From positions 4,291,626 through 4,355,625 of the forward strand of contig NC_057752.1 of the NCBI RefSeq assembly GCF_004010195.1: a DNA stretch of 64,000 bases, given 5' to 3'. The notes under the pieces were generated by a model. The model worked only from the letters and a program-made list of their open reading frames with translations. It did no database searches and had not been told where the DNA came from. The position numbers were made by a program, and so were the translations under genes. This document shows, in pieces, positions 1-60,689 of this stretch. Positions within the stretch are counted from its first letter, which is position 1. Each line of letters starts with the position of its first letter. This DNA is from Chiloscyllium plagiosum (lineage: Eukaryota).

Positions 1-1192
1 ACTCAGGCAGCCATTTTCTATTTGGAAAATGTTGAGCCAATCACAGTGAATCAGTTTTACCCACCAAGCTTGGGCCTGAGCCTTTTACTACACTCAGTGG
101 GAACTGAACCAACTGCTTCTCATAAGAGACCGGAACAGAAACTGTACCATTTATCTGGTATAGGTTCTCAGTCTAGCCGAGGTCTTATGCAAACTTAAGG
201 GTTGGAGTCCAGACTGAATCTTGTTGAAGACTGGTTTCACAAACCCTGATACAGCCACGCTGGTATCAACCTCTATTAGAACTGGGTGACCATTTAACCA
301 GGTGTGTATTTTGATTGGTTCTGATTTGGATGTTGCTAAGCAATGTAACTGTTCCAAACCAGATGTAGATGGATTTTCCAGGGTGTGCACTCTCCTGGTT
401 ACCAGCCTATTAGTTCTCTTACTCCATTTAGATCTCATGGGACTCTCTTGCTGTTTCGAGTCCACATACTGGCAGTAACTACAATGGTTTGTCGGCCTGG
501 ATCCTGAAGAAAACTTTTACCGTTTGGCCGAGGCTTGGCTTTATTTTGGGGCTTTGCTGTGGGCTGGCCTAGAGCCCCTCTGTTCAGGATATATCCTGAG
601 TGAGGCTACACAATTGCCTTCACTCAAGTGGCATTCCCCAAGTTCAGTCAGTGTGGCGAGGGTGCCCACCTCCATCGGAATAGCCTATAACTCATATACT
701 CCACTTGCTGCATGTTCTAAAGCCAGTTTGAAGTCCAGATGGGCTTCAGCTAGTAGGTGCTTTTGCATGGTTACATCATTAATACCACATACCAAACGGT
801 CTCTCAGCATCTCGTTCAGGGTTAAACCAAAGTCACATGCCTCTGCCAGGCATCTTAACTTGGTCAAAAATCCACAACACAGATTCCCCCGGTTCTCGAA
901 CTGCTGAGTAAAACTGATAGTGTCTCAAAATTACAGGAGGCCTGGGGTTGTAATATTCCTTAACTAAATCTGTCAACCCTTGAAAGGTGTTTGTATCTGG
1001 TGCCTCAGGGAAAGTTAGGCTCTGAACAAGTGATAAAGCTATGGGTTCCTCAAGTTGTCGGGAGAATTACTCGTTACTTTTCAATCTGCCTCAATGTCAT
1101 TTGCCCAGAAAGAAATAACACATTCTTTCCACGCAGTGGGTCCAGTCACTGATAGCAGGATCGAATGAGCCAAGTTTCCCAAGTAATAACAT
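1..1192 (-). mobile_element. Gypsy/Ty3 LTR retrotransposon internal relic (gag and aspartic protease), frameshifted
   Basis: Gag start MLLLGKLGSFDPAISDWTHCVERM (ATG at 1192), LAEACDFGLTLNEMLRDRLVCGIND, protease-like LNGHPVLIEVDTSVAVS. Confidence 0.85.
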
Positions 1193-1411
1193 GATGTCAG
1201 AAATGTTTACCCCAACTCAAAGATGACTGTTGCGAGTGATTTTCTTCAGGAGTGTATTTTCTTCTCTTGTCGCTGCAGAAATAACTCTATAGTGGCCTAT
1301 GTCCCGTCACCAAGTTCCCCTTTATTTACACGTGGAGAGTCTTCGACACTGATCCAGCTCCCTCAGAGTCAGCTTTCAGAGTGAGCAGAGCCTCTGACAC
1401 TCCTGTTTTAT

Positions 1412-4069
1412 TTTTCTTTTTTTTTAAGGATGTCTGATCCTCCTTTTTATTTGCCTTTTGTGTGTGTGTGCAGGTATGAGACACAGTGAAAGACACAAGG
1501 TGTACAAATCGTTATTCAATTTCCACCATCAGGGAGAAAGGAAACACCCGAGTGGCCAGTGACAAGCAGTGCCCTTCACATCAAAGGGCAATGCTGTCTG
1601 ATCAAAACAGTGAAGGGGAGGGTAGGGATCAAATCAACATAGAATTGGACGGGGAAATAATACACTCCACTCCCTGCGGTGCCCACCTCTCCCTGAACAA
1701 CTCCAGGGTGTTGGTCGACACCGCGTGCTCCTTCTCCAAGGACACCCGGGCTCTAACGTAACCGCGGAAGAGGGGCAGGCAGTCGGCCCTAACGACCCCC
1801 TCCACGGCCCGCTGCCTCGACCTGTTTATGGCCAGTTTGGCCAGACCCACGAGGAGGTCCTCAGACCTGCCCTCCCTCTTCCGTACCGGAGCTGAAGTGC
1901 AAGCAAAAGCAGAGAAGAAGGTTTTTAAGAAAGTCAAAAAGGGAGTGCAAACATCCATATCCCACATATACATGGTCCACAGACTCCACAGCGCCACACA
2001 ACAAGCAGTTGGGCTGGGAGTCCGTGAACCACCGCAATCTGCGGTTGCAGGGGACTGCTGCGTGCAGCACCCTCCACCCCAGATCCCCGAGAGAAAGGGG
2101 GAGGACTCCCGCGTAGAGAGCCCTCCATTGGGGATTCCCACCCCCCAATACTTTCCTGTTTGTTTTCCAGCACCCATGGTGTGTGTGTGTGCAGGTGTGA
2201 GACACAGTGAGAGACACAAAGTGCACGAATCTTTATTCAATTTCCACCACCAGGAAGATAGGAAAACACCCGGGTGGCCAGTGACAAACACTGCCCTTCA
2301 CATCAAAGGGCAATGCTGTGTGATCAAAACAGTGAGGGGGAGGGTAGGGACTAAATCAAAATAGAATTGGAGGGAGAAATAATGCACTCCACTCCCTGCG
2401 GCGCCCACACACCTGTTTATATATTTTTTTATTTTTGTCAGCAAGCCCCCACCCCTCCCACCTTCCAACCTCTAAGGAAGCCCGCCCCTACCCACCTTCC
2501 AGTTCTCGGTCCACCCCATGCCCCTTCCAGTTAATTCCCTGTTTATTTTTTTTTGTGCAGGTGTGAGACACAGTGAAAGACACAAAGTGACATTCCTGTT
2601 TAAATATTTTTTTTTCCAAATTCCACCACCAGGAAGATAGGAAAAACACCCGGGTGGCCAGTGACAAACACTGCCATTCACAGCAAGGGACAGTGCTGTG
2701 TGATCAAAACAGTGAAGGGGAGGGTAGGGACTAAATCAAAATAGAATTGGAGGGAGAAATGATGAACTCCACTCCCTGCGGCGCCCACCTCTCCCAGAAC
2801 AACTCCAGGGTGTTGGTGGACACCATGTGCTCCTTCTCCAAGGACACCCGGGCTCTAACGTAACCGCGGAAGAGGGGCAGGCAGTCGGCCCCCACGACCC
2901 CCTCCACGGCCCGCTGCCTGGAACTGTTGATGGCCAGTTTGGCCAGGCCCAGGAGCAGACCCACGAGGAGGTCTTCAGACCTGCCCTCCTTCCACCGTAC
3001 CGGGTGCCCAAAGANNNNNNNNNNNNNNNNNNNNNNNNNNNNNNNNNNNNNNNNNNNNNNNNNNNNNNNNNNNNNNNNNNNNNNNNNNNNNNNNNNNNNN
3101 NNNNNNNNNNNNNNNNNNNNNNNNNNNNNNNNNNNNNNNNNNNNNNNNNNNNNNNNNNNNNNNNNNNNNNNNNNNNNNNNNNNNNNNNNNNNNNNNNNNN
3201 NNNNNNNNNNNNNNNNNNNNNNNNNNNNNNNNNNNNNNNNNNNNNNNNNNNNNNNNNNNNNNNNNNNNNNNNNNNNNNNNNNNNNNNNNNNNNNNNNNNN
3301 NNNNNNNNNNNNNNNNNNNNNNNNNNNNNNNNNNNNNNNNNNNNNNNNNNNNNNNNNNNNNNNNNNNNNNNNNNNNNNNNNNNNNNNNNNNNNNNNNNNN
3401 NNNNNNNNNNNNNNNNNNNNNNNNNNNNNNNNNNNNNNNNNNNNNNNNNNNNNNNNNNNNNNNNNNNNNNNNNNNNNNNNNNNNNNNNNNNNNNNNNNNN
3501 NNNNNNNNNNNNNNNNNNNNNNNNNNNNNNNNNNNNNNNNNNNNNNNNNNNNNNNNNNNNNNNNNNNNNNNNNNNNNNNNNNNNNNNNNNNNNNNNNNNN
3601 NNNNNNNNNNNNNNNNNNNNNNNNNNNNNNNNNNNNNNNNNNNNNNNNNNNNNNNNNNNNNNNNNNNNNNNNNNNNNNNNNNNNNNNNNNNNNNNNNNNN
3701 NNNNNNNNNNNNNNNNNNNNNNNNNNNNNNNNNNNNNNNNNNNNNNNNNNNNNNNNNNNNNNNNNNNNNNNNNNNNNNNNNNNNNNNNNNNNNNNNNNNN
3801 NNNNNNNNNNNNNNNNNNNNNNNNNNNNNNNNNNNNNNNNNNNNNNNNNNNNNNNNNNNNNNNNNNNNNNNNNNNNNNNNNNNNNNNNNNNNNNNNNNNN
3901 NNNNNNNNNNNNNNNNNNNNNNNNNNNNNNNGGAGTCCGTGAACCACCGCAATCTGCAGTTGCAGGGGACCGCTGCGTGCAGCACCCTCCACCCCAGATC
4001 CCCGAGAGAAAGGGGGAGGACTCCCGCACAGAGAGCCCTCCACTGGGGATCCCCACCGCCCGGTACTTT
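1412..4069 (-). mobile_element. Tandem stack of 5'-truncated Tx1-clade non-LTR retrotransposon 3' fragments (contains N gap)
   Basis: ORF2 C-terminal zinc-finger region LGDLGWRVLHAAVPCNRRL...CLLCGAVESVDHVY...LLVGLAKLAINRSR; the same 3' UTR repeats at ~1460, ~2180 and ~2555; A-rich tails. Confidence 0.8.
3015..3931. other. Assembly gap (N run)
   Basis: Run of N. Confidence 1.
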
Positions 4070-5214
4070 CCTGTTTATAGCTGTCAGCCAGAGCTCCCTG
4101 ATTGGACCAGGTTAACAGCCCCAATCAGGGAACTCAGATTCTGACTGACCTCATTACAATCAGTACAATCACCTTCAAAAAACAGAGTTCTGCCAAAGAC
4201 ATCCCAAGGCACTTCATGTGCAGTCACTTGTTGTTATGTTGTCAAACACAACAGCCATTTTCCACATAGCTTGTGCCCCGCTTACAACCAGACAGTTGTG
4301 GCAGACATCACAACAATATTCACCAGGTCACTGGGCAAACTCACCTCTAGTCTTCAGATAACACTCTGAGATTCCTGAGAATGTGAGAACCGGGAGGTGA
4401 GGTAGACCATTCCAGTCCCTCAAGCCTGTTCTGTCTTCCAATATGATCACGGGTCAATCTCCATCTCAGAGTTCCATTTCCCCTCCGGCTAACCTGTATC
4501 CCTTGAGTCACTGAGAAAAAAATCTGAATTTCTGAATTCAAAAATGGGTCTATCCCACTGTTACGATCCCAGCTGATGCTCTTACCAGGCAAATCAGATC
4601 CCAGACTAATGCTTAACAGTTTATATCGTGTTTATTTCTGTTTAAAAAGGTGGCTTTTCACTGAAATACGAGCGTGCAATGTTGCAGATTTGATTTCAAC
4701 AATAAAACCAAAGTTTATTACACAAAGGAAGCAAAGATACCATAGAATAAAATGAGCTATTTATATAAAACACAAGTGGAAAGATTTTGAAAGTTTATTA
4801 TTCCACCTATCCCATTTATCTTTACAGCACACCAACACTAGAGACTCTTTTCTTCTCTATCACATCTATAGGGGTCGACAACTACCTGTTTCCAATTTCT
4901 GGTCTTGACAGTCTAATAGCTTCTTACTTGAGTAGTCACACAACTGTTTCAAATAACCCCTTCAGGGTTCAAAACAAATTTCTGGTCTGGAACTTTCAAA
5001 CTAAGCTCGTTACACTGAGGTAATCTTTTTCTTCCTCCTTCTAAACTATCGCCCTTCTTTTGAAGAAACTGTTCAGCCTATCCACCAGGGCATCTGCAAA
5101 CTGAAACCAAAAGGTTTTCCAAGCTATGGGTGTTTTCCAGAAGCAACAGAAAAAATTCTGGATCCAAAAACCTCAAACTCTTCAATGTTTACTTTGTCCA
5201 CTTGTAACTATTTG

Positions 5215-16812: not shown

Positions 16813-19800
16813 AAAGGACAGCCTTGTCTAGAAATAATCAGAATTCATGTTATTGGGCCTAACAGAGGACTATGGTGATGCAGTTTGATCCAAGAAATAC
16901 ATTTTTCCCCAAAGCCAAATTCCTCCAAAATAAAAGAAAAGATTCCACCCTATCAAAGGCTTTTTCAGCGTCTAAAGATATCAAAGCCTCAGGGAGAGTG
17001 GATGGGGAAAAACTGTAAACAACGTTAAAGTCCCGCGTAGGATTAAAAAAGGAGTGCCTGTTGCAAATGAATCCAGTTTGATCCAAGGACATGATAGTTG
17101 GAAGGATGGTTTCCAAACATCGGGTTAATAGCTTTGACAATCATTTAAAGTCAACATTTCACAGATTTATAGGACAATATGAACCACACAATAAGGAATC
17201 TTTGCCTTTCTTTAAAAGCAAAGAAATTGATGTCCGAGTTAAACTTTGAGGAAGAGAGCCAGAATTAAACGCTTCAACAAACACATCTGCCAAAAGCAGC
17301 GCCAGCTTTCTCCAAAATGTTTTATAAAACTCAGCTGGAAAACCATCGGCTCCAGGACTTTTACCACTATGCAGTGATCTAGCCGCAGCCTCCAGTTCTA
17401 TTGCGGTGACTGGTTTTTCCAATTCCTTTGCCACATTTGGATCAATAGTAGGAACATTATTTTTATCAAAACAGGTCTCAAAATCTGCTGTAGCAGAAGA
17501 GCATTCAGATGAATAAAGTGGAACGTAAAATTCTTAATAAGTCTTGTTGATTTCTAATGGGTCTGACGTGACACCTGAATTAGCCTTAATTTGTGGGATT
17601 AATTGAGATGAAGACATTTGGCACATCTCATGTGCCAACAGTTTGCTACTTCTATCTCCTTGTTCATAACATTTCGACTTAGAGTGAAGTAAGAACTTGG
17701 TGGTGGATTGTGACATTACCACACCATACTCGGCCTGTAGGGATATTCATTCTTTATATACTTCTGAGGACTTAGAGATTGCATAAAGAGAGTCTAATTG
17801 AGCCAAACGTTGTGTGAACCATGCCGATTTCTCTTTCCTAAACCTATTCTAAGAGTAAGTGTGCATTGAGACTCCAAGGTGGATGTGTATTAAGAATGTT
17901 CGGAAAGCGAACATTCACAGAGACAGATGCATGGTCTGATAAAACAACTGAATCATACTTGCAACCAGAAATGGATGCAAGCAGTCTATTACCCACCAAA
18001 AATAAATCAGTATGTGTAAAAGTGTGATGGACGTGCAAAAAAAAAGAATATTCCTTTTTAGAGAGATGAAAGAACTGCCAGGGATCAACAATATTAAACT
18101 CTTCCATAAAAATTTTAATTATTTTGGACTGGGCACTTGGAACAGAGGAAGAATGGTCTAAGTGAAGATTCAACCAACAGTTAAAATCTCCTCCCGAGAT
18201 TAGCTGGTGTGAAGATAAATCCGGTTACATTGAAAGGGACCGTTTGAAAAAAACCTCATCATCCCATTTGGGAGCATCGACATTAGCCAAGATTACATTA
18301 ATATCAAAAATCTGTCCAGTAAACATAATATATCTGGCAGTAGAGTCAGAGATAGTTTTAGCATGGATGAGAGGAATAGATTTATGTTAAAAAATAGCAA
18401 CTCCTCTAGATCTGCTAGAAAAGGAGGAAATATACACTTGTCCAATTCAACCTTGTTTCAATTTAGGACTGTCTATATTTGTCACATTGGCTTCTTGTGA
18501 AAAAATTATATTAAGATGGCGTAAATAATGTGAAATCTTATTGCGTTTAATTGGGTTGTTCAGGCCTTTGCAGTTCAGACTGGCAAATTTAATGTCCCCA
18601 CTTACCAAGGGTGGTGAAGCATTAACCTGTGTTATATGTAATAATCACACGTAAAATTCCAAATGTGCAATAATAGATAAACAAATGTAAACCTTGTAAA
18701 AGTGAGGTATGTGCTGCCCCACCCCCATCCCCATCAGAACAAAACAAACTCCACCACCTGCCATAACAGTATCTCCCCCTATGATGGAATACCTGCCCAC
18801 CAACCCCTCTCCCACCCAGCAGAACCCCCTCCACATGGGTGTGTGCTCTCTTCCCCCATAGTTAAAAAAAACTGTCCTCTTTTGTAGCTCAAGCGAACTA
18901 CATGGTGACCTCGGGAAATATAGAAGTTAACTGTACAAAAACTACGAAGCAAAAATGAGTAAAAATGTAAATGTAATACAAAATACTGTACATAGTTAAA
19001 CAATTAAACTCTACATTCTTTGGTACCAATACAGCAACCTTTCAACAAAATAAAGTTTTGAATAAAAAAACATGCACTTCTTGGCGAATGAAGAATACCA
19101 AATCCAAGTCTCTAAACACAGCATACCGTCCATCTTCATCTCTTCAGAGGGAAATGTAGTCTTTGTCCATGGTAGTGTAAAGCTAATGGCTAGTCGGCCT
19201 AGTTAGGCCCAACCATCAATCCGGCTCTAGAACCGCGAGCTTTTTAAGGTTTATATTCACAAAGTCGATAGCCCGTCCCGGGTCATCAAACCTATGAGTT
19301 AGGCCACTCGGCAAAATGATATGTAATATCGCCGGATAACAAAGGCCAAATTTAATGCTAGGACATGAGGGTAGCTCCTTCTTTACCTTGGCAAAAGCTG
19401 CATGCTGCTTAGCCACAGTCGGGGGGAAATAGGGAAAAACATATACTCTTTTTCCATTATATTCAAGAGCAGAAGCATCTCCAGCACAGCATAGAATGTG
19501 ATTTCTCACTTGAAACTGGTTCACCCTGACGACCATAGGGCGAGATAACTCGCCTTCTTTCAGTTTAGCACGCAGCGTGTGATGAGCCCTGTCCAACACA
19601 GGTTTAGCCTCAAGTCTGAGCAAGTCCTGTAAATGTTGGGCCATAAATTCTGTGGGGCGAGGACCCTCCAATCCCTTCGGGTAAACCCACAAGTCAAATA
19701 TTATTCCACCTGGAGTGGGCTTCCAAGTCTTTTATTTATATTATTTCTTAGTCAGAGACTCAATCATCTGTTTTCCGGACTGTTTAAGTTCAGCAATTCT

Positions 19801-40300: not shown

Positions 40301-42315
40301 CAAAAGGAAGGTGGCCAGCACATGGCGTTGGTTTGGCAATCAAGACCACTGGGCACAGATACTGGTAAAACCGAAGCTCACATTTACTTAGAGTATCTTT
40401 GGGTTTAATTCAAGCACCTCCTTGGTTTCAGCTGTCGGTAGTATTCTGAGAGTCTCCTGTGAATGGAGCTCACAAAATGTGAATACGTCACCCTGTCCTT
40501 CTGAAACTTTAGCACGAGTCCTGGCTATCCCCTGGCCCAGTGGGATTGGCACCAATTTTTCAGCAACTGCTTGGAAGAGCTCTAAGGAAATTCTCCATGA
40601 CAATGACAGTAAATGAAGTAGTTATACCAGCCCTGAGATCAAGTTTTGTAACTAAGATTCTGTAACTAGATACCTTGGCACCTAAGATGGCGCCATAAGT
40701 GGTGACTTGTAAATTTTTCACTGCACTCATGCGAGTACATGTGACAATAAACTTAATTCGGTTCAATTCACACTTTGGCTGTCCTTCTCTGACAGATTCA
40801 TGGCCAATCCACACAAATACCTTGAACTCACCCAGAGATCCTGTGAAGGTGCGTGAGCAATTCACTTGGCCCGATTTTATAACAAGTTAAAATTAAACCA
40901 ATGGGCTAGCAGCTCTGCTTAAACAACAGGTACAGGAACTTCGTGTTTATAACTTACATTACGCTTCACAATTTGCATAATGTCCAAGGTGAAATTTCTG
41001 TTTCTCTCTCCTTCTCTACAACTCATGCAGAAATCTACTTTTTTCCAACTAAATCAGTTAAACAGGATCAAAGGCAAACTGGGGGCGATAGCCCCTGAAA
41101 GGCACTGTAACAAAAGGTCAAACATTTCAAAAGGAAACCGACAAATTCAAAGTGAACGGTCATTTTGAGGATTGATGGGGGGTGTCCCCTGAATTTGGAA
41201 GTTTATTCTAATCCAACTAAAATCTGAATTTCACTCTCTCCCCTCCTAAACGTAAACAGCCAGCAATTGTTAACACTTACTTGGTCTTGTAATCTTCCAC
41301 CATTCCCTGCATGCCTTCCAGTTCGGATTGCAGGCGAAGCTTTTCCTGGGCTAGGGTGTCGATCTGCTGCTTGAGGTTGTTGGAGTAAACTTGGAAGAGG
41401 CTGTCAATGTTGGAGCTACGCACACCTTTCTCATGCAGCAGTTTCCAGTGCATTTCCAACTGCTTGTTGCGGTGCTCCAGTGACCGCACCTTGAAAAAAT
41501 AAGGTCACGCATACTGCTTGACTCTTCAATTAAAAAAAAATGCAGAAATTGCTGGAGAAACTCAGCAGGTCTGGCAGCATCGCGAGTTTCTCCAGCAATT
41601 TCTATTTATGTTTCAGATTTTCAGCATCCACAACTCTGTTTTATTTGTTTTAAATGCACCTGTCTTCATTCCAGGGTTACGTGGGGGTCAAAGACAAAAC
41701 AGCAGCTGTCTCGGGCAGCAGTGGAAATAAATATCAAAAGGTGCTTCATAACGGTAGCCCATTTTTTTTCCGCCACTGTCAAACTCAATAGGGCGTCACC
41801 GCGAAAGAAGACGCCTCACATTATTACAGGTGCAATCGCCCTGAGGCTATTTGCTTTTCCACAGTTGCAAGTTTATGCAAACGTTATCCTTGTTTTGAAA
41901 AGCATCGATTGGTTTAAGGCTTTGAAAATGCGTTGGATTTCAGAGTCCAGCATTTTGTCACAGTTTAAGCGCGCTTCGTATTAATGTTGAATATTCTATG
42001 ATTTGATTCGAACTTTTTTTTTAAAACAAAAACGATTTCAGGCTTTACCTTGTCGATGAAAGAGGCGAACTGGTTATTCAGCCCTTTGATCTGTTCCTTC
42101 TCGCGGAGACGGAGCTCCTGGAGCGCCTGGCCGCCCTCGAAGCGGGGGTTCTCGGCAGGTATTTTGCCCAGACTAGGGACGTTGCCCAGTCGCTGAGCGC
42201 TCATGCCCAGGAACGGGCCACTCCGGACCATGCTGACCCGCTGCATGGACGAGCCGGGGGTGTACGACTGGCTGCTGAAGTGGGAACGGGAACGGAGCGA
42301 GCTACGGCCGGACAT
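22539..42315 (-). CDS. krt8: Type II keratin, keratin 8-like (445 aa); join complement(42315-42049, 41489-41281, 31197-31137, 30204-30109, 29672-29508, 26135-26010, 25854-25634, 23701-23658, 22687-22539)
   Basis: Nine GT-AG exons of 267/209/61/96/165/126/221/44/149 nt join into one open 1338-nt frame. Motifs: coil 1[17 protein letters not shown], helix termination [21 protein letters not shown]8-type tail [16 protein letters not shown]. The 209-nt exon 2 matches K8. Orthologue versus paralogue is not resolved. Confidence 0.9.
23034..23315. repeat. Degenerate (GT)n / (GTGTGTTACTGT)n microsatellite in krt8-like intron 8
   Basis: Direct inspection. Confidence 0.95.
23658..23701 (-). CDS. krt8: krt8-like exon 8 (tail)
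   Basis: 44 nt with phase 2 start and phase 1 end as in type II keratin exon 8; strong polypyrimidine tract ...gatttcag|(R)[14 protein letters not shown]|gtaaga; restores frame into exon 9. Confidence 0.75.
24780..25325 (+). mobile_element. CR1 3' fragment in krt8-like intron 7
   Basis: [27 protein letters not shown]...AWNSLP. Confidence 0.85.
25634..25854 (-). CDS. krt8: krt8-like exon 7 (coil 2B end)
   Basis: 221 nt, [19 protein letters not shown]...[29 protein letters not shown], ttacag|...|gttagt. Confidence 0.96.
26010..26135 (-). CDS. krt8: krt8-like exon 6
   Basis: 126 nt, [42 protein letters not shown], ttttag|...|gtaaga. Confidence 0.95.
26700..27750 (+). mobile_element. CR1/HER1 3' fragment interrupted by a solo LTR
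   Basis: CR1 sequence gtggtggacgTGGG resumes as TGGGtacaattac after the insert. Confidence 0.8.
26975..27627. mobile_element. Solo LTR (653 bp) with 4-bp target-site duplication
   Basis: TG...CA ends, TGGG duplicated at 26971-26974 and 27628-27631, internal AATAAA at 27478-27483. Confidence 0.8.
27752..27985 (-). mobile_element. Third tRNA-SINE family (related copies ~35930-36048 +, ~39800-39980 -, ~45985-46140 +)
   Basis: Shared ctcagttggctgga...gggttcaattccc...ccttctcaacctctccccttgcctgagg...ctctctaatgag. Confidence 0.6.
28475..28955 (-). mobile_element. CR1/HER1 3' fragment nested in a SINE
   Basis: [38 protein letters not shown]. Confidence 0.88.
29508..29672 (-). CDS. krt8: krt8-like exon 5
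   Basis: 165 nt, [38 protein letters not shown]...WENK, cccag|...|gtaatg. Confidence 0.95.
30109..30204 (-). CDS. krt8: krt8-like exon 4
   Basis: 96 nt, [32 protein letters not shown], ttgcag|...|gtaaag. Confidence 0.95.
31137..31197 (-). CDS. krt8: krt8-like exon 3
   Basis: 61 nt, [20 protein letters not shown], cccaag|...|gtgggt; too short for the ORF track. Confidence 0.95.
33440..33700 (+). mobile_element. Deu-domain SINE relic (SacSINE1/AmnSINE1-like)
   Basis: ctgcactgtcagaggtgcc...ttcggatgagac...ctcaggtggatgtaaaa matches the Deu core as recalled. Confidence 0.65.
34700..34980 (+). mobile_element. HE1 SINE
   Basis: tRNA head, V core, (TAATC) tail. Confidence 0.85.
36049..36335 (+). 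mobile_element. HE1 SINE
   Basis: tRNA head, V core, CR1-like tail. Confidence 0.85.
36697..37000 (-). mobile_element. HE1 SINE
   Basis: Reverse complement of HE1 head, core and tail. Confidence 0.85.
37063..37220. repeat. Inverted repeat (~63-bp arms) from a Penelope-type terminus
   Basis: Arms 37063-37125 and 37158-37220 are reverse complements with a few mismatches; single-arm relative at ~36365-36480. Confidence 0.75.
37960..38325 (+). mobile_element. HE1 SINE with a duplicated 53-bp internal unit
   Basis: gatgtgcagg recurs at 38102, 38155 and 38208. Confidence 0.85.
39195..39775. mobile_element. HE1 SINE (+, ~39372-39700) nested inside an opposite-strand HE1
   Basis: Minus-strand tail at ~39195-39365 and head at ~39710-39775 flank a plus-strand copy. 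Confidence 0.75.
41281..41489 (-). CDS. krt8: krt8-like exon 2
   Basis: ttttcaag|[12 protein letters not shown]...GMVEDYKTK|gtaagt, 209 nt. Confidence 0.95.
41544..41603. repeat. Perfect 20-bp inverted repeat with 20-nt loop in krt8-like intron 1
   Basis: AGAAATTGCTGGAGAAACTC (41544-41563) and GAGTTTCTCCAGCAATTTCT (41584-41603). Confidence 0.9.
42049..42315 (-). CDS. krt8: krt8-like exon 1 (head + start of coil 1A)
   Basis: ccactATG context; [18 protein letters not shown]...[18 protein letters not shown]; donor AAG|gtaaag. Confidence 0.92.
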
Positions 42316-42497
42316 AGTGGTCTCTTTTGTCTCTCCCTTGTTACAAGATCGGGGCAAAAAGCAACAGAAAGTTTGGATTAACTGCAAGAGCGGGGAAGCT
42401 AGGAAGAGGGTAGCAAAACAAAAAGGCCAGTATCAGAAACCCCTTTCTGATGTTTGCCCCGAAGGCAAGTGTGCTCCCGTTAGACGGCGTTGGACGG

Positions 42498-42608
42498 TAT
42501 ATAGGCAAATTCCTGGCGCTCTCATTGGCCAGAAACACTGTCTGAAATGGATTACCATGGTAACTGGACGCTACCTCAGGCCAATCGGCGATAGCCGGAA
42601 GGTATAAA
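42498..42608. promoter_or_regulatory. Bidirectional krt8/krt18 core promoter
   Basis: Minus-strand TATATA 42498-42503 and CCAAT 42524-42528; palindrome TTACCATGGTAA 42552-42563; plus-strand CCAAT 42581-42585, CCGGAAG 42595-42601 and TATAAA 42603-42608; CpG-rich surroundings. Confidence 0.75.
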
Positions 42609-42720
42609 GTGTCAGTACTTGCTGTGAGTTGGTTATTGATTCCCCTCCAGGTACTCCCTGCAACAAGTGCAGCTCCAAACACAACTTCCAAACCTCGCCG
42701 CCTCTCTTTCTCCCTCCAAG

Positions 42721-43092
42721 ATGAGTTTCCGAAATTATTCCTCGCTGTCCACCCACAGTGGTTCTATGTCCCTGCGGAGGTCCATGCCCCTGCAGTCCAG
42801 TGCGAGCAGCATCGCTGGCTTCGGCCACAGGATGTCGGTGAGCCGGGTATCGATGGCCCGGCCTGTGGGCATGGCCGCCGGGGCCAACTTCAGTGTCGGC
42901 GGGGTCAGCAACCAGAAGGAGGCCATGCAGAGCCTGAACGACCGGCTGGCCAGCTACCTGGAGAAAGTGCGCAGCTTGGAAGCGGCCAACGCCAAGCTGG
43001 AGGTGCAGATCAAGGAGCACTTGGAGTCCAGGGAAGCCAGCGTCCGAGACTGGGCCATCTACGAGAAGCCGCTCAGTGACCTCCGCAAAGAG
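42721..43092 (+). CDS. krt18: krt18-like exon 1
   Basis: ccaag[11 protein letters not shown]...LSDLRKE; donor GAG|gtaacg. Confidence 0.93.
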
Positions 43093-45417
43093 GTAACGTT
43101 TAGCTGGGGGGGGGGAGGGGGGCTGTCCTGGCACAGGGGGCACCATGAAAGGAGTGAGGGAGGGGAGAGGAAAGAGTTTCTCTCTTACACAATAGCTGAG
43201 GAAGAGGCTGCCAACCTCCCCGCACCAGTTCACTCTTAATTTATAATATTTATATGTATAAACGCAACACTTTAACCGATTTATTCTGTTCGATCCTTCA
43301 GGTCTATGAGATGACCATCGAAAATGCTCGTTTGGTACTTCAGATCGATAATGCTCGTCTGGCTGCTGACGATTTCAGGGTGAAGTGAGTTCTCTCTCTC
43401 CCTCTCTCTCATAGCCACACAAAGTTTAGTCAACGCTGTAAGTAGTTTCTAATCAACCAGTTCAGAGATCTTGTGTCAAGCAGCTGGGACTTGAACCTGG
43501 CTCAGAGGGCGGGCTGCTGTGTCATGCGAACCTCAGCATGTGCAATACCTTCCCCACACACCCTCCCCGCCCCCAACCCCAGCTCCTCTGACACGGCCTG
43601 TTTGTCTTTCCCCTGGACAGGTGGGAGTCTGAGCTGAGCATCAGGCAGTCTGTGGAGAACGACATCAACGGACTGCGCAAAGTCATTGACGACACCAACA
43701 TCGGGCGCCTGCAACTGGAGAGTGAGATCGAGTCTCTCAAGGAGGAGCTCATCTACATTCGGAAGAACCACGATGATGTAAGTTCCACCGAGATGTCCCT
43801 CGTTGACAATGAGTGGGTGTAGAATTCACCGGTGCTGAAAAGTCAATAGGATCCTGTAAGAAGGGAGATTGAAGTAAATGATTGGGAAATCAGATTATTG
43901 CTGTACAAGTAATTTCCGTGTGAGAACAATAATAGAGGTAAGCTAATAAAATATAAGGTGTTCAGTTATTGAAATGAGCTATGAAGTTTTGTCCCCCTTT
44001 TTGACTCTCCAAACGTTTGAGTTCTAGACATAGAGCACTTTGGTAAGAACGGAGTGGAAATTGTCTTTTCATTCTACAGGAAGTTAAAGCTCTGCGCTCC
44101 CAGGTCACTGGCTCCAGTGTGCAGGTTGAAGTGGACTCCCCTCAGGGCCCAGATCTGGCTAAGACCATTGCTGAGATCAGAAAGCAATATGAGGAGGTGG
44201 CACAGAAAAACAAGGATGATGCGGAGAACTGGTACAAGAGCCAGGTAAAGACGAAAAAAAAACCCCACGCCGTTCCACATCTTGTTTCACTGATAACATT
44301 TGATTCAATTGATCCCTCCAAGTAAACAGAATTGCAATTTGACCAAATATCCTCCAAATATAAGAGCTTGTGAATGCTGGTGAAAACTGGAAGCTTTAAA
44401 TGCATTTCTTATTGCAGATAGATAGCTACAAAATTGAAGTTGAACACAATGCTGAAGAACTGCAAGGTTCAAAGGCACAAGTCACTGAACTGCACCATCA
44501 GATACAGTCTCTGGATGTTGAGCTGGAGAGTCTCCTGAGCAAGGTAAGGACTCCATTGTGAACAGGTGTAACTCAAACCAAAGCCTCACCTCACATACTG
44601 CATGCAACACCAACTGATCTAATTGAAGGATCATGTCTGCTCCTTTTTTAAAAAATTCTGCCTGTATTTTTGTTTCATTTGAGAAAAACTCATTGGAAGG
44701 CACTCTCAAAGACACAGAACTGAGATATGACATGGAGCTGCAAAGCCTAAATGGCATGATTGCCAAACTGGAGGGAGATCTGTTTCAGATCCGGAGTGAT
44801 ATGCAGACCCAGGTCAGAGAATATGAAAACCTTTTGAACGTGAAGATGAAACTCGAGGCTGAAATAGCAACATACAAACACCTGCTGGATGGGGAAGATA
44901 TCAAGTAAGTAGCATCAGTGGAAAAAGTAATGACTATGACACAGTTGTGCATCCACAATCCACACCTATGTGTAATTGCTCTGAGCTGATTTATTTCTGT
45001 CTCACTTTTTTTCTTTCTCTTTTGTTCTTATAGCGCACTTGTTGAGTCAACCTCAGGTAAGACCATTTAATTCAGGAAATGTGTGCATGTAATTTTATCG
45101 TGTGCCTGTTATACACCCCATGGGATAGGTTTTCATCTGCTCCATACAGCTGGAAGTCTGCCCTGCTTGTCATTCTGTTGAAAGCTATGGTGGGGCGGTA
45201 GCAGGCCAATTCTACAAGGATGTGCGATTCATCCAGCGAGGATGGAAATCTATTGTATGTTAAGTTTCTTGTCTGCAAACGTACCTGCTCACAATTTGAT
45301 TCTTTTCCTTTTGCATGACCAGGTGCCACCTCACAAACTATCAAGAAGACTGTCGTCACCACTCAGAAACTCATGGATGGCAAAGTGATATCTGACGAGA
45401 CAGTCCGCATTAACTAA
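42721..45417 (+). CDS. krt18: Type I keratin, keratin 18-like (413 aa); join(42721-43092, 43302-43384, 43621-43777, 44080-44244, 44418-44543, 44684-44904, 45034-45056, 45323-45417)
   Basis: Eight exons of 372/83/157/165/126/221/23/95 nt join into one open 1242-nt frame. Motifs: [62 protein letters not shown] linker, [17 protein letters not shown], tail [21 protein letters not shown]. Confidence 0.93.
43302..43384 (+). CDS. krt18: krt18-like exon 2
   Basis: 83 nt, [28 protein letters not shown], cttcag|...|gtgagt. Confidence 0.96.
43621..43777 (+). CDS. krt18: krt18-like exon 3
   Basis: 157 nt, [52 protein letters not shown], gacag|...|gtaagt. Confidence 0.96.
44080..44244 (+). CDS. krt18: krt18-like exon 4
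   Basis: 165 nt, [39 protein letters not shown]...WYKSQ, ctacag|...|gtaaag. Confidence 0.96.
44418..44543 (+). CDS. krt18: krt18-like exon 5
   Basis: 126 nt, [42 protein letters not shown], ttgcag|...|gtaagg. Confidence 0.95.
44684..44904 (+). CDS. krt18: krt18-like exon 6
   Basis: 221 nt, [15 protein letters not shown]...[18 protein letters not shown]; acceptor is the rare GAG (catttgag|), donor |gtaagt. Confidence 0.9.
45034..45056 (+). CDS. krt18: krt18-like exon 7 (23-nt microexon)
   Basis: Long polypyrimidine tract, ttatag|c gca ctt gtt gag tca acc tca g|gtaaga; required to keep exon 8 in frame. Confidence 0.8.
45323..45417 (+). CDS. krt18: krt18-like exon 8 (tail, TAA stop)
   Basis: gaccag|[31 protein letters not shown]. 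Confidence 0.88.
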
Positions 45418-50185: not shown

Positions 50186-50740
50186 TTTAGATGTCTTGTG
50201 TGCTCTCAATGCAGATCATTCAGTGTATGCTTTTATCATTTTGAGTCCAGTCCTGAAGAAGTTATACCCGAACCCGACTTCTCCACCTCCTGATGCTGCC
50301 TGGCTTGCTGTGTTCTTCCAGATTCCTGCTTGTCTACCTTGGATTCCAGCATGTGCAATTTTTTAGTCTCTTTATCATTTTCAAAGCAAAGTTGGAGCCA
50401 CCACAAAGGAGGATTTTGTCAGAAAGAAAATTCATACTGACTTGTATATTTTGATTACACAAGAATATTTAAAATCAGATTCAACTAATCAAATGGATTA
50501 TGATGGCGAATAATCTCACAAACATTTCACAAACATTAATTTTTTCCTCATTAATTATGCATCCTCAGATGTTTTTAGTCACTAATTCTAAGTTCAGTCA
50601 TTATGGATTCAGAGATGTTTTAACTAGCTATTAGTATGCTTTGATATAGTACGGATAGAATATGGTCATGTTAATAAGCTAGGAGGTAAAAACAATGACT
50701 GCAGATGCTGGAAACCAGATTCTGGATTAGTGGTGCTGGA

Positions 50741-51441
50741 NNNNNNNNNNNNNNNNNNNNNNNNNNNNNNNNNNNNNNNNNNNNNNNNNNNNNNNNNNNN
50801 NNNNNNNNNNNNNNNNNNNNNNNNNNNNNNNNNNNNNNNNNNNNNNNNNNNNNNNNNNNNNNNNNNNNNNNNNNNNNNNNNNNNNNNNNNNNNNNNNNNN
50901 NNNNNNNNNNNNNNNNNNNNNNNNNNNNNNNNNNNNNNNNNNNNNNNNNNNNNNNNNNNNNNNNNNNNNNNNNNNNNNNNNNNNNNNNNNNNNNNNNNNN
51001 NNNNNNNNNNNNNNNNNNNNNNNNNNNNNNNNNNNNNNNNNNNNNNNNNNNNNNNNNNNNNNNNNNNNNNNNNNNNNNNNNNNNNNNNNNNNNNNNNNNN
51101 NNNNNNNNNNNNNNNNNNNNNNNNNNNNNNNNNNNNNNNNNNNNNNNNNNNNNNNNNNNNNNNNNNNNNNNNNNNNNNNNNNNNNNNNNNNNNNNNNNNN
51201 NNNNNNNNNNNNNNNNNNNNNNNNNNNNNNNNNNNNNNNNNNNNNNNNNNNNNNNNNNNNNNNNNNNNNNNNNNNNNNNNNNNNNNNNNNNNNNNNNNNN
51301 NNNNNNNNNNNNNNNNNNNNNNNNNNNNNNNNNNNNNNNNNNNNNNNNNNNNNNNNNNNNNNNNNNNNNNNNNNNNNNNNNNNNNNNNNNNNNNNNNNNN
51401 NNNNNNNNNNNNNNNNNNNNNNNNNNNNNNNNNNNNNNNNN
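50741..51441. other. Assembly gap (N run)
   Basis: Run of N. Confidence 1.
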
Positions 51442-52592
51442 TTCAATTTCTCCATTAGTCTACCATGGGAAATCTTATCAAACGCCTTAATAAAGTCCAT
51501 GTATACCACATCTACCGCTTTCCCCTCATCAACCTCCTTCGTCACCTTTTCAAAGAATTCAATAAGGTTTGTGAGGCACGACTTGCCCTTCACAAAACCA
51601 TGCTGACTATCCTTGATCACATTATTCCTATCCAGATGTTCATAAATCCTATCCCTTACAATTCTCTCTAAGACTTTGCCCACAACAGAAGTGAGACTCA
51701 CTGGCCTATAGTTACTAGGGTTATCCCTACTCCCCTTTTTGAACAAGGGTACCACATTTGCTATCCTCCAGTCTTCTGGGACTACTCCTGTAGACAAAGA
51801 GGACATAAAAATTAAGGCCAATGGCTCTGCAATCTCCTCCCTTGCTTCCCAGAGAATCCTAGGATAAATGCCATCAGGCCCAGGGGACTTATCTATTTTC
51901 ACCTTTTCCAGGATTTCCAACACCTCTTCTCTACATACCTCACAGCCATCCATTCTACTTATTTGTGACTCAGTATTCACATCGACGACAATGCCCTGTT
52001 CCTGAGTAAATACTGAAGAAAAGTATTCATTCAGTGTCTCCCCAATCTCTTCCGCCTCTACACGCAACTTCCCACTACTATCCTTGTCTGGACCTATTCC
52101 TACCCTAGTCATTCTTTTATTCCTAATATACCTATAGAAAGCCTTAGGGTTTTCCCTAATCCTACCGACTAAGGACCTTTCATGTCCCCTCCTTGCTGCT
52201 CTTAGCTCTCTCTTCAGGTCCTTCCTGGCTACCCTATAACTCTCAATCGCCCCAATTGAACCTTCACGTCTCATCTTGGGATAGGCCGCCCTCTTCCATT
52301 TAACAAGGGATTCCAATTCCTTATTACACCACGGCTCCCTCGCATGACCCTTTCCTCCCTGCCTGACAGGTACATAATTATCAAGGACACTCAATAGTTG
52401 CTCCTTGAACAAGCTCCACATATCATTTACACTCTTGCCCTTGGAGTCTACTTTTCCAAGCCACACATCCTAAGTCACGCCTCACCGCATCATAATTTCC
52501 CTGACCCCAGCTATAACTCTTGCCCTGTAGTACACACTTATCCCTCTCCATCACGAGAGTAAAAATCACCGAATTATGGTCACTATCCCCAG
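51442..52592 (-). mobile_element. CR1 LINE ORF2 fragment with an open reading frame of about 340 aa running into an assembly gap
   Basis: NPKAFYRYI, LNEYFSSVFT, KSPGPDGIYPRIL, VPEDWRIANVVPLFKKG, NYRPVSLTS, QHGFVKGKSCLTNL, VYMDFIKAFDKI. Confidence 0.93.
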
Positions 52593-58844: not shown

Positions 58845-59470
58845 AAGGTCTTAGACAGTGGTTTTTCCCCACTGCGCCTTGCTGGCAGCTGCCCCAGGCT
58901 TTACTGCGTCTCTCAGTACACAGTTCTGGACCTTGGAACGTGCCAGTCTGCAACTCTCAGATGAAGTAAACTCCTAGCTCTGGAAGGCCAACAAGTTTCA
59001 GGCAAACCAAAGAGTGTCTTTCACTTCTGGTCCTCCAGGTGCGATCGATGTTTGTCTTGCTGTGTGTCCAAGGATACAGATCGTAGAGCGCAGAGTCCTG
59101 CATGATAGAGCTGCTCGACAGAAGCCACTACATCTTTCTCTGGACTTCCTTTGTGAAGGCACCTTCCAGCAGGAGATGTGTGACAGTCTCTACCCTGCTC
59201 CAAGGACAGCGTGCAGTGGCGCAGACAGACCAGGCATTCAGGAAGGATCTGACAGGTAGTGCCCTTATCGTCACCAACCAAGCGATGTCTTGCTGCTTGT
59301 TGGAAAGTTCTGGTGATGAGGCATTCTGACAAAGAACTTCGACTGTCTGCCCAGGGAGCCACATGACAGGATCCACGCTCTCCTTTTCCCTCAGGGTCTC
59401 CCATTGGGAATTTGGCATGGAGGTTGCTACCCCCTGCAGTCCCGAGCAATAGATCGTTAAGATGATTCAT
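58845..59470 (-). mobile_element. Tx1-like LINE ORF2 C-terminal relic (different family from 1412-4069)
   Basis: QNASSPELSNKQQDIAWLVTIRALPVRSFL...ARCP...ETVTHLLLEGAF (zf-RVT-like). Confidence 0.7.
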
Positions 59471-60689
59471 GGACCCCTATGCAGTCTGTAATCTCTGCAG
59501 CCTAGGGAACTCCAGCTTTCATCTTTACATACGGTTGGAGAACCGGTAGCCACTTTTCCATCACCTGAATAGGCAGTTCCAAGTTTCTGGTTGCACATTA
59601 GCCCTGTGCTCTTGAGATGGGGCTTGAAGCCTCTTCAATCAATGGGCATTCAGATTTCTGGAGTGCAGCGTTCAACACTGGGAATTATTTTTTAATTTAA
59701 TAGGTTTCCTTTAAAATTAAAATGCTCTTTACAGTGAGTTAATAGTGCCCATTTCACATGAGATGCTTAATTGGGTTTATTGGCATCAAAAGAGGATATT
59801 TCTCGTTGATGTATTCCCTCCTCACGATAACCTGTAAATGCTTCTATACAACCACGTACCCTTTGAAGGTTTTGTATTTATGACATTCTCCTCCTCATTA
59901 TCGATCTACAGCCAATCTTCAAAATCCAAACTGATCCATTTAATGAGATATTAGAGTTTATCCTAAATTAGCACAACAGCAGAAACATTACAACGGCTAT
60001 ACAGTTTTGCATTGTGCCATCCATCCAAACTACGTGCTAAACTTTGAATATGTGTAATAAAATGTAAAGCATAGGGTTTAAGATTACTAATGTACTTTGC
60101 TGTTGAGAAACCGCAACGGTCAACCATGGAATGCCAAAGTGAGTGTCTCTTGAATGAGACATTGATATTACACCATGCTGTCACTACTTTGTCCAGGAAA
60201 TGCACTTCCTGCATCCTTTAAATCCATTTTCATTTCAATATCAACTACCCAGTTTCCTTTCCTGGTCTCATGTTGTCTGATATTGTAAATGGTTCTCTCT
60301 CCTCAGCTACTGTTCCTCTCCCATTCAAAACCAATGTCATCAGCCCCACTCTTACCTCACAAGAACCTAGCCTTAACCCCTCTGCTTTGCAAACCAACAA
60401 TCATCTCCAACTCCTGTCAAAAGTTCTTAATATGGGATCACTTTTCAAAGCTGCGTCCATCGTTCCCATAACTTTGTACTCGGAACCCTTCGATCAGGTT
60501 TCCACCCTTGTCACAGCATTGAAAAGACCCTGAATCAAAGTCACAGATAATAATGCGCTGGGATTGTGGTCAGGTTAAACTGTCCCTCCCCATCCTTTCC
60601 GATCTGCCTTGGGTCTTTGACCTGGCTGACCTCACCATCTTCATTCAATGCCTCTTTACTATTGTCCTGTTGGACTGCCCTTACCTTGA

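Follow-up and report, generated by a model that had tools for sequence, protein, structure and literature searches.

Repeated insertion of a Tx1L-related LINE at one position in the putative core promoter of a Gypsy-type LTR across related genomes

Near the left end of a 64,000-nucleotide stretch of Chiloscyllium plagiosum DNA (contig NC_057752.1, positions 4,291,626 to 4,355,625; hereafter the window), a long terminal repeat (LTR) is split by an array of truncated fragments that resemble the LINE Tx1, which raises the question of whether a Tx1-type element repeatedly selects one position in the promoter of another retroelement. The site is real: within the promoter region of a Gypsy LTR, insertions of a Tx1L-related LINE recur at this position, and they do so in more than one related genome. 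Read along the minus strand, on which all features of the locus lie, the order is the U3 part of the LTR, a target copy, piece F, an assembly gap, insert E, a target copy, insert D, a target copy, insert C, a target copy, insert B, a target copy, insert A, a target copy, and the R-U5 part of the LTR. All inserts of the array share one orientation.

The U3 part of this short LTR (4077–4158) holds a pair of inverted CCAAT boxes (4091–4135, a self-inverted match) and stops three bases into the TATA box, with TATAAA beginning at 4079. Its start, previously put at 4167, would lie at 4158 as judged by the TG...CA ends. The R-U5 part (1277–1396) contains an initiator-like TCACTCT (1384–1378) and an AATAAA (1326–1321), and the end of the LTR family is deduced from loose ends at 1302 in three sequencing runs. 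When the halves are rejoined, the initiator-like A follows the TATA box at a distance of 29 bases, the usual Pol II spacing. With its CCAAT, TATA, and initiator-like motifs, the LTR carries a putative Pol II core promoter, in which the inserts separate the CCAAT and TATA boxes from the initiator-like motif.

Beyond the R-U5 part, a decayed gag and protease region (44–1216), interrupted by stops and frameshifts, exits the left end of the window. The gag piece matches the N terminus of two proteins, P0077 (E 3e-25) and P0082 (E 1e-18), both of which have the order RT-RNase H-integrase and one of which, P0082, also has a protease domain ahead of the RT. Because the gag relatives have this domain order, the host is identified as the 5′ LTR of a Gypsy-type element. 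Close protein matches are found in Hemiscyllium and Rhincodon gene models. The protease-like piece had no match in the PDB, and Pfam named none of the 11 pieces from the window except for one sub-threshold match; the pol region of the host lies outside the window. Given the stops and frameshifts in gag, the host element may have been dead before the insertions.

The six junctions of the array all carry the motif CCTGTTT (AAACAGG on the minus strand), with starts at 1402, 2155, 2412, 2538, 2595, and 4070, and the motif overlaps the TATA box of the LTR; on both points, an earlier reading made from the sequence only was correct. The six copies on one strand of the array's 1,779 non-N bases compare with about 0.21 expected, and the probability of at least six is about 1e-7 for this motif, which was chosen post hoc; the whole window contains 27 copies versus 14.5 expected. 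The sequence-only reading had also placed A-rich tails before five of the copies, which is the case for four of the five: the last 15 bases before the motif include 13, 11, 10, and 10 A's at these four and only 4 at 2155. A seventh copy in the array (1821–1827) lies inside insert A's own ORF2 and not at a junction, and insert E lacks the target core at the matching position. The 7-mer was rejected as a sufficient target, with eight of the 19 copies past 4890 lying within another abundant repeat (21528, 34951, 36306, 36721, 46443, 49166, 56947, and 62958) and none of the 19 preceded by a tail.

Each insert is indeed flanked by a copy of the target, as had been claimed, with a duplication that is longer than the 7-base motif. 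The 7-base core is followed by AAAGT in the left copy (4065–4076), AATGT in the copy between E and D (2590–2601), GAATT between D and C (2533–2544), TGTGT between C and B (2407–2418), and AAAGT, as in the left copy, between B and A (2150–2161); the right copy (1397–1408) runs on into the R region of the LTR. When the five post-core bases before each insert are compared with the AGTGT continuation, 12 of 20 positions match (P = 0.001) in a tally that counts A and F once; the D/C copy is the weakest, matching at one of five positions. The duplication is thus about 12 bases, composed of an exact 7-base core and a loose five-base end, and an approximately fixed five-base stretch follows the core at all five upstream junctions.

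From the U3 side, the first unit is piece F (3932–4064), a 5′-truncated stretch of Tx1-type ORF2 that corresponds to residues 1112–1158 of Xenopus Tx1 ORF2 (45%, E 1e-6, tblastn). It is followed by an assembly gap of 917 N (3015–3931). Piece F and insert E may be the two ends of one element, which would need about 139 bases between them, or F may be a unit of its own; an extra unit like A would take about 892. Insert E (2602–3014) comprises the ORF2 C terminus (41% to Tx1 ORF2 residues 1206–1291, tblastn) and a partial 3′ UTR, and it ends at the AATAAA position of the family, followed by an A9 tail. A joint from 3014 to 1892 is present in 462 reads. Insert D (2545–2589) consists of 35 bases of Tx1 3′ UTR, identical to B at 35 of 36 positions and to A at 37 of 39, and an A9 tail. 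Insert B (2162–2406) contains the last ORF2 codons and a 3′ UTR with an AATAAA, ends at a family-internal A-tract, and has a short tail; its UTR folds slightly better than shuffled sequences (z −1.8). Insert A (1409–2149) has about 170 codons of a decayed ORF2 C terminus, with a frameshift, a 12-base deletion, and a stop at 1629, followed by the 3′ UTR, about 45 bases of other origin, and an A-rich tail. These 45 or so bases (within 1409–1459) match neither the longer UTR of the family nor the rest of the window and are possibly a further tiny insert.

Pieces A, B, D, E, and F represent one family, 90.6–97% identical pairwise where they overlap, and A, B, D, and E have different 3′ end points and, where visible, different 5′ breaks. 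The array had been described as about five Tx1-type 3′ fragments. Four of the inserts do belong to the Tx1 family, and the stretch 2437–2532 is instead an unrelated repeat. This repeat forms insert C (2419–2532), which is composed of 96 bases of a purine-rich, 5′-truncated repeat and an A-rich tail. Insert C matches no Tx1 copy and no other part of the array, and Rfam assigned nothing to it at the gathering score; Rfam returned three matches, each under that score. The repeat extends past 2532 in 250 reads, with a depth of about 360 in one run, X22. Copies of the motif come after Tx1 ends at four different points and after one sequence of another kind, and the idea that the motif is the element's own 3′ end was rejected. 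So was the idea that it is the element's own sequence at the 5′ break of A and F, where 647 reads run upstream with ORF letters that lack the motif.

The relationship of the family to Tx1 is seen in the C-terminal region of its ORF2. An 85-residue piece of insert A matches Xenopus Tx1 ORF2 (P0074 = P14381; 46% over 84 residues, E 3e-18) and had no L1 match in a PDB search. A bridge protein, P0001, matches Tx1L with an E value of 1.5e-138 (41% over 99% of P0001) and human L1 ORF2 with an E value of about 1e-6, over residues 9–181 only. In this C-terminal region, the predicted ORF2 of the array family lies nearer Tx1L than L1; the available text of PMC3747384 places Tx1 itself within the L1 clade. 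Traits of the Tx1 clade that are present include 5′ truncation, an A-rich tail (weak for B), and target duplication. The window holds no endonuclease or RT domain of the array's Tx1 family, both domains lying upstream of every break, and protein searches found no full-length ORF2 of the family. Another protein, P0073, is a gene model of repetitive sequence that does not truly match insert A, and it was rejected as a relative. Pattern scans of viral_contigs and metagenome_contigs yielded no copies, none of 166 pattern matches in a protein scan of metagenome_contigs was confirmed, and 72 retrieved proteins contained no convincing LTR- or C-derived piece, with four marginal rows that overran from the ORF.

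Other retroelement remnants and ORFs are visible in the window. On the plus strand, 59400–59579 is an old remnant of another Tx1-like ORF2 (33% to Xenopus Tx1, 47% to P0001) that has no blastn match to the array family. On the minus strand, a decayed L1-clade element (16889–19731) retains ORF1-, endonuclease-, and RT-like pieces, and an RT frame at 50727–52469, which we take to be CR1-like, is interrupted by a 701-N gap. Two divergent ORFs at 41965–43374 presumably resemble first exons of keratin or other intermediate-filament genes.

Sequencing reads from related species show the site in both empty and filled form. Four of 24 listed runs, from three related species (one of them represented by two runs), were compared with 1100–3014: X22, which consists of raw reads, and X1, X6, and X9, which consist of contigs. 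In each of the four, the sequences that carry the LTR half up to 1408 run on with U3-like sequence (363 reads in X22; 86, 84, and 87 contigs in X1, X6, and X9, respectively), and the X22 read consensus matches window positions 4077–4106 at 28 of 30 bases. Because the LTR halves are contiguous in these reads, the empty site has one copy of the motif, and the earlier claim that removal of the inserts rejoins an LTR promoter is upheld by reads that join both halves. A filled site joining 1425 to 2167, which contains the LTR half, the target, a T-run, and a B-type end, is present in 10 reads with eight different starts in X22 and in three contigs in X9, and this joint was found in neither X1 nor X6. 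In X6, one contig joins 1378 to 2180 and contains a variant LTR, the target, and a D- or A-type end. In X9, a head-to-tail pair with a target-like spacer joins 2983 to 2182. These filled junctions are examples and not rates, as they come from the 15 of 885 joints and the 24 of 5,360 loose ends that were listed; no insertion at 1821–1827 is among those 15 joints. Separate filled junctions in the reads of three organisms confirm that the site is used beyond the locus in the window. No run contained more than 0.49 of the words of the window stretch, and the array itself therefore rests on the assembly.

The reads also bear on how closely the family is tied to the LTR. The family UTR runs on past the ends seen in the window (2,246 reads for position 2167, 447 for 2182, and 408 for 1461), and these run-on reads share one longer end; the depth at 2179 is 3,329. 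All four visible Tx1 3′ ends in the array are short of the family's usual end. The 82 reads over 2162 were not counted toward the short ends, because read-through reads might align there. Read continuations cover 30 letters, and the flank of the usual 3′ end falls beyond them. In X22, the depth of the Tx1 UTR is about 6,270 (about 4,985 plus 1,283) versus about 1,080 for the LTR, which suggests that Tx1 ends outnumber the LTR by about 6:1, a ratio in which the decayed copy of the LTR may be under-represented. In the reads, the majority of LTR sites appear empty, with 10 filled and 363 empty-type reads. Given this ratio and the mostly empty LTR sites, a Tx1 family confined to the LTR is not an easy reading of the data. 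In Kojima 2015 (PMC4494074), as far as its available text goes, a family counts as target-specific when more than 20% of its flanks are one kind of sequence. What is observed is repeated insertion at one position and in one orientation, at six junctions here and at the 1425/2167 and 1378/2180 joints elsewhere.

The likely explanation, in our view, is target-primed reverse transcription by a LINE of the Tx1 clade that strongly prefers one core-promoter site of the short Gypsy LTR. We infer the enzyme, the nick positions, and the order of events as follows. A Tx1-type endonuclease would cut the TATA box at its T/A step, nicking the antisense strand; the T-ended strand would prime on the A-rich end of an RNA, and the second strand would be cut about 12 bases further on, duplicating the site. 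Each insertion would leave two usable copies of the target, such that inserts could stack head to tail, all oriented alike. This machinery may sometimes copy another poly(A) RNA, as in the case of insert C. The endonuclease of Xenopus Tx1 is described as sequence-specific in the accessible part of PMC1950540. Besides the depth ratio and the short 3′ ends, two observations weigh against this explanation: the nick site resembles a generic L1 site, and one junction matches the continuation at only one of five positions.

The first of these observations leads to an alternative in which the site is a generic hot spot, where a low-specificity endonuclease of the L1 type would have hit the TATA box once and later inserts would have landed in the poly(A) tails of earlier ones, duplicating the bases downstream. 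The T-tract/A step at the site resembles the L1 consensus TTTT/AA, as given in the available text of PMC1950540, and the depth ratio of about 6:1, with LTRs mostly empty, also favors this alternative. Landing in tails does not readily account for the nearly constant end point of the duplications at the five upstream junctions, nor for first hits at the same LTR position in other genomes. The window has 11.8 TAAA per kb, and two further TAAA in the LTR carry no insert at this locus. We regard a generic hot spot as unlikely. In a different division of labor, targeting would be the work of an enzyme from a separate Tx1 or L1 family (or from a subfamily) that has relaxed RNA choice and takes any poly(A) RNA in trans. 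The RNAs so loaded would include prematurely ended transcripts of the array's abundant Tx1 family as well as insert C, which is unrelated and yet has the same junction pattern. The short ends of all four visible Tx1 copies fit this picture, given that at least 2,246 of 3,329 reads at the end of B run on. In the available text of Kojima 2015 (PMC4494074), trans mobilization into the target of a Tx1 element is proposed for SINEU elements. Four or five of the five or six inserts, however, belong to one Tx1 family, as a preference for RNA in cis predicts, and long ends linked to the target would be beyond the reach of 30-letter read continuations. We consider loading in trans very unlikely as the main explanation.

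The remaining alternative is that the array arose mainly by DNA-level tandem duplication of one insertion or by misassembly. It draws on the pair A and F, which have identical five junction bases and an identical 5′ break, on the 917-N gap, which fits one more A-like unit (892 bases), and on the absence of the array locus from every run compared. A and F differ at nine of 145 positions, however, and are no closer to each other than B is to E (93.8% identical); at 6% apart, they were rejected as a recent duplication or an allelic overlap. The units also differ in both ends and in their tails, and one is unrelated, such that duplication would explain the A/F pair only, and for the array as a whole it is highly improbable. 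The two identical 5′ junctions do mean that not every unit of the array is independent. The shared junction points to an old duplication or to homology-guided 5′ joining, in which a resident junction would have been copied, and not to two separate truncations. Homology-guided 5′ joining is a mechanism known from L1 and R2.

A strong site preference of a Tx1-clade LINE has precedents among targeted elements, and the supposition that this kind of targeting had not been described finds no support. The available text of Kojima 2015 (PMC4494074) names two crocodilian families, Tx1-8_Crp and Tx1-4_AMi, that prefer specific LTR retrotransposons, and other Tx1 families that target Mariner and Harbinger transposons. 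The shark Tx1 inserts are likewise found in an LTR retrotransposon; the host differs in being a shark, and the main text of that paper names neither the LTR elements nor the positions (PMC4494074). By analogy, the array appears to work like these crocodilian families and would extend a known habit to sharks. It also resembles SINEU-3 and Tx1-Mar in Mariner-N4_AMi, in which tandem inserts sandwich a duplicated target and other RNAs are found at the same site, according to the same text (PMC4494074). In that system (PMC4494074), the inserts lie in a Mariner DNA transposon and the duplication measures 16 bases, whereas the shark array lies in a putative LTR core promoter and has a duplication of about 12 bases. 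Tx1L of Xenopus laevis, the closest named protein, similarly has another transposon, Tx1D, as its target; as described in the accessible parts of PMC1950540 and PMC6719617, that target is a piggyBac-type DNA transposon with AGTT after the nick, whereas the bases after the presumed nick in the shark array are AT-rich. With mammalian L1 (TTTT/AA), the array shares 5′ truncation and would share a T-tract/A nick, poly(A) priming, and trans-mobilized RNAs. L1 is promiscuous, and its duplication lengths vary. A literature search that covered few subscription journals and did not include Repbase found no shark Tx1 at an LTR TATA box.

A more far-reaching version of targeted insertion can be proposed, in which a Tx1 lineage without a promoter of its own lives on Gypsy LTR promoters, being transcribed under the CCAAT and TATA boxes while the LTR is cut off from its start site, an arrangement conserved across several shark species. 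The endonuclease would cut in the TATA box, possibly guided by promoter-bound proteins, which would place a full-length insert immediately beneath the CCAAT and TATA boxes, and the regenerating site would keep an ordered record of other poly(A) RNAs and of Tx1 transcripts with short ends. Transcription from the flank of the target has been proposed for SINEU-3 and Tx1-Mar in the available text of Kojima 2015 (PMC4494074). All copies in the array are 5′-truncated and gain nothing from the LTR promoter, and we hold this version to be quite improbable. If it is true, the LINE both silences and exploits an LTR retrotransposon. The position in the TATA box makes it testable whether transposon-targeting LINEs borrow the promoter of their target. 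If specificity for the site holds across the family, a vertebrate APE-type endonuclease would have a new, short, and well-defined target, which would be useful for studies of target change in Tx1 elements and for site-directed insertion tools.
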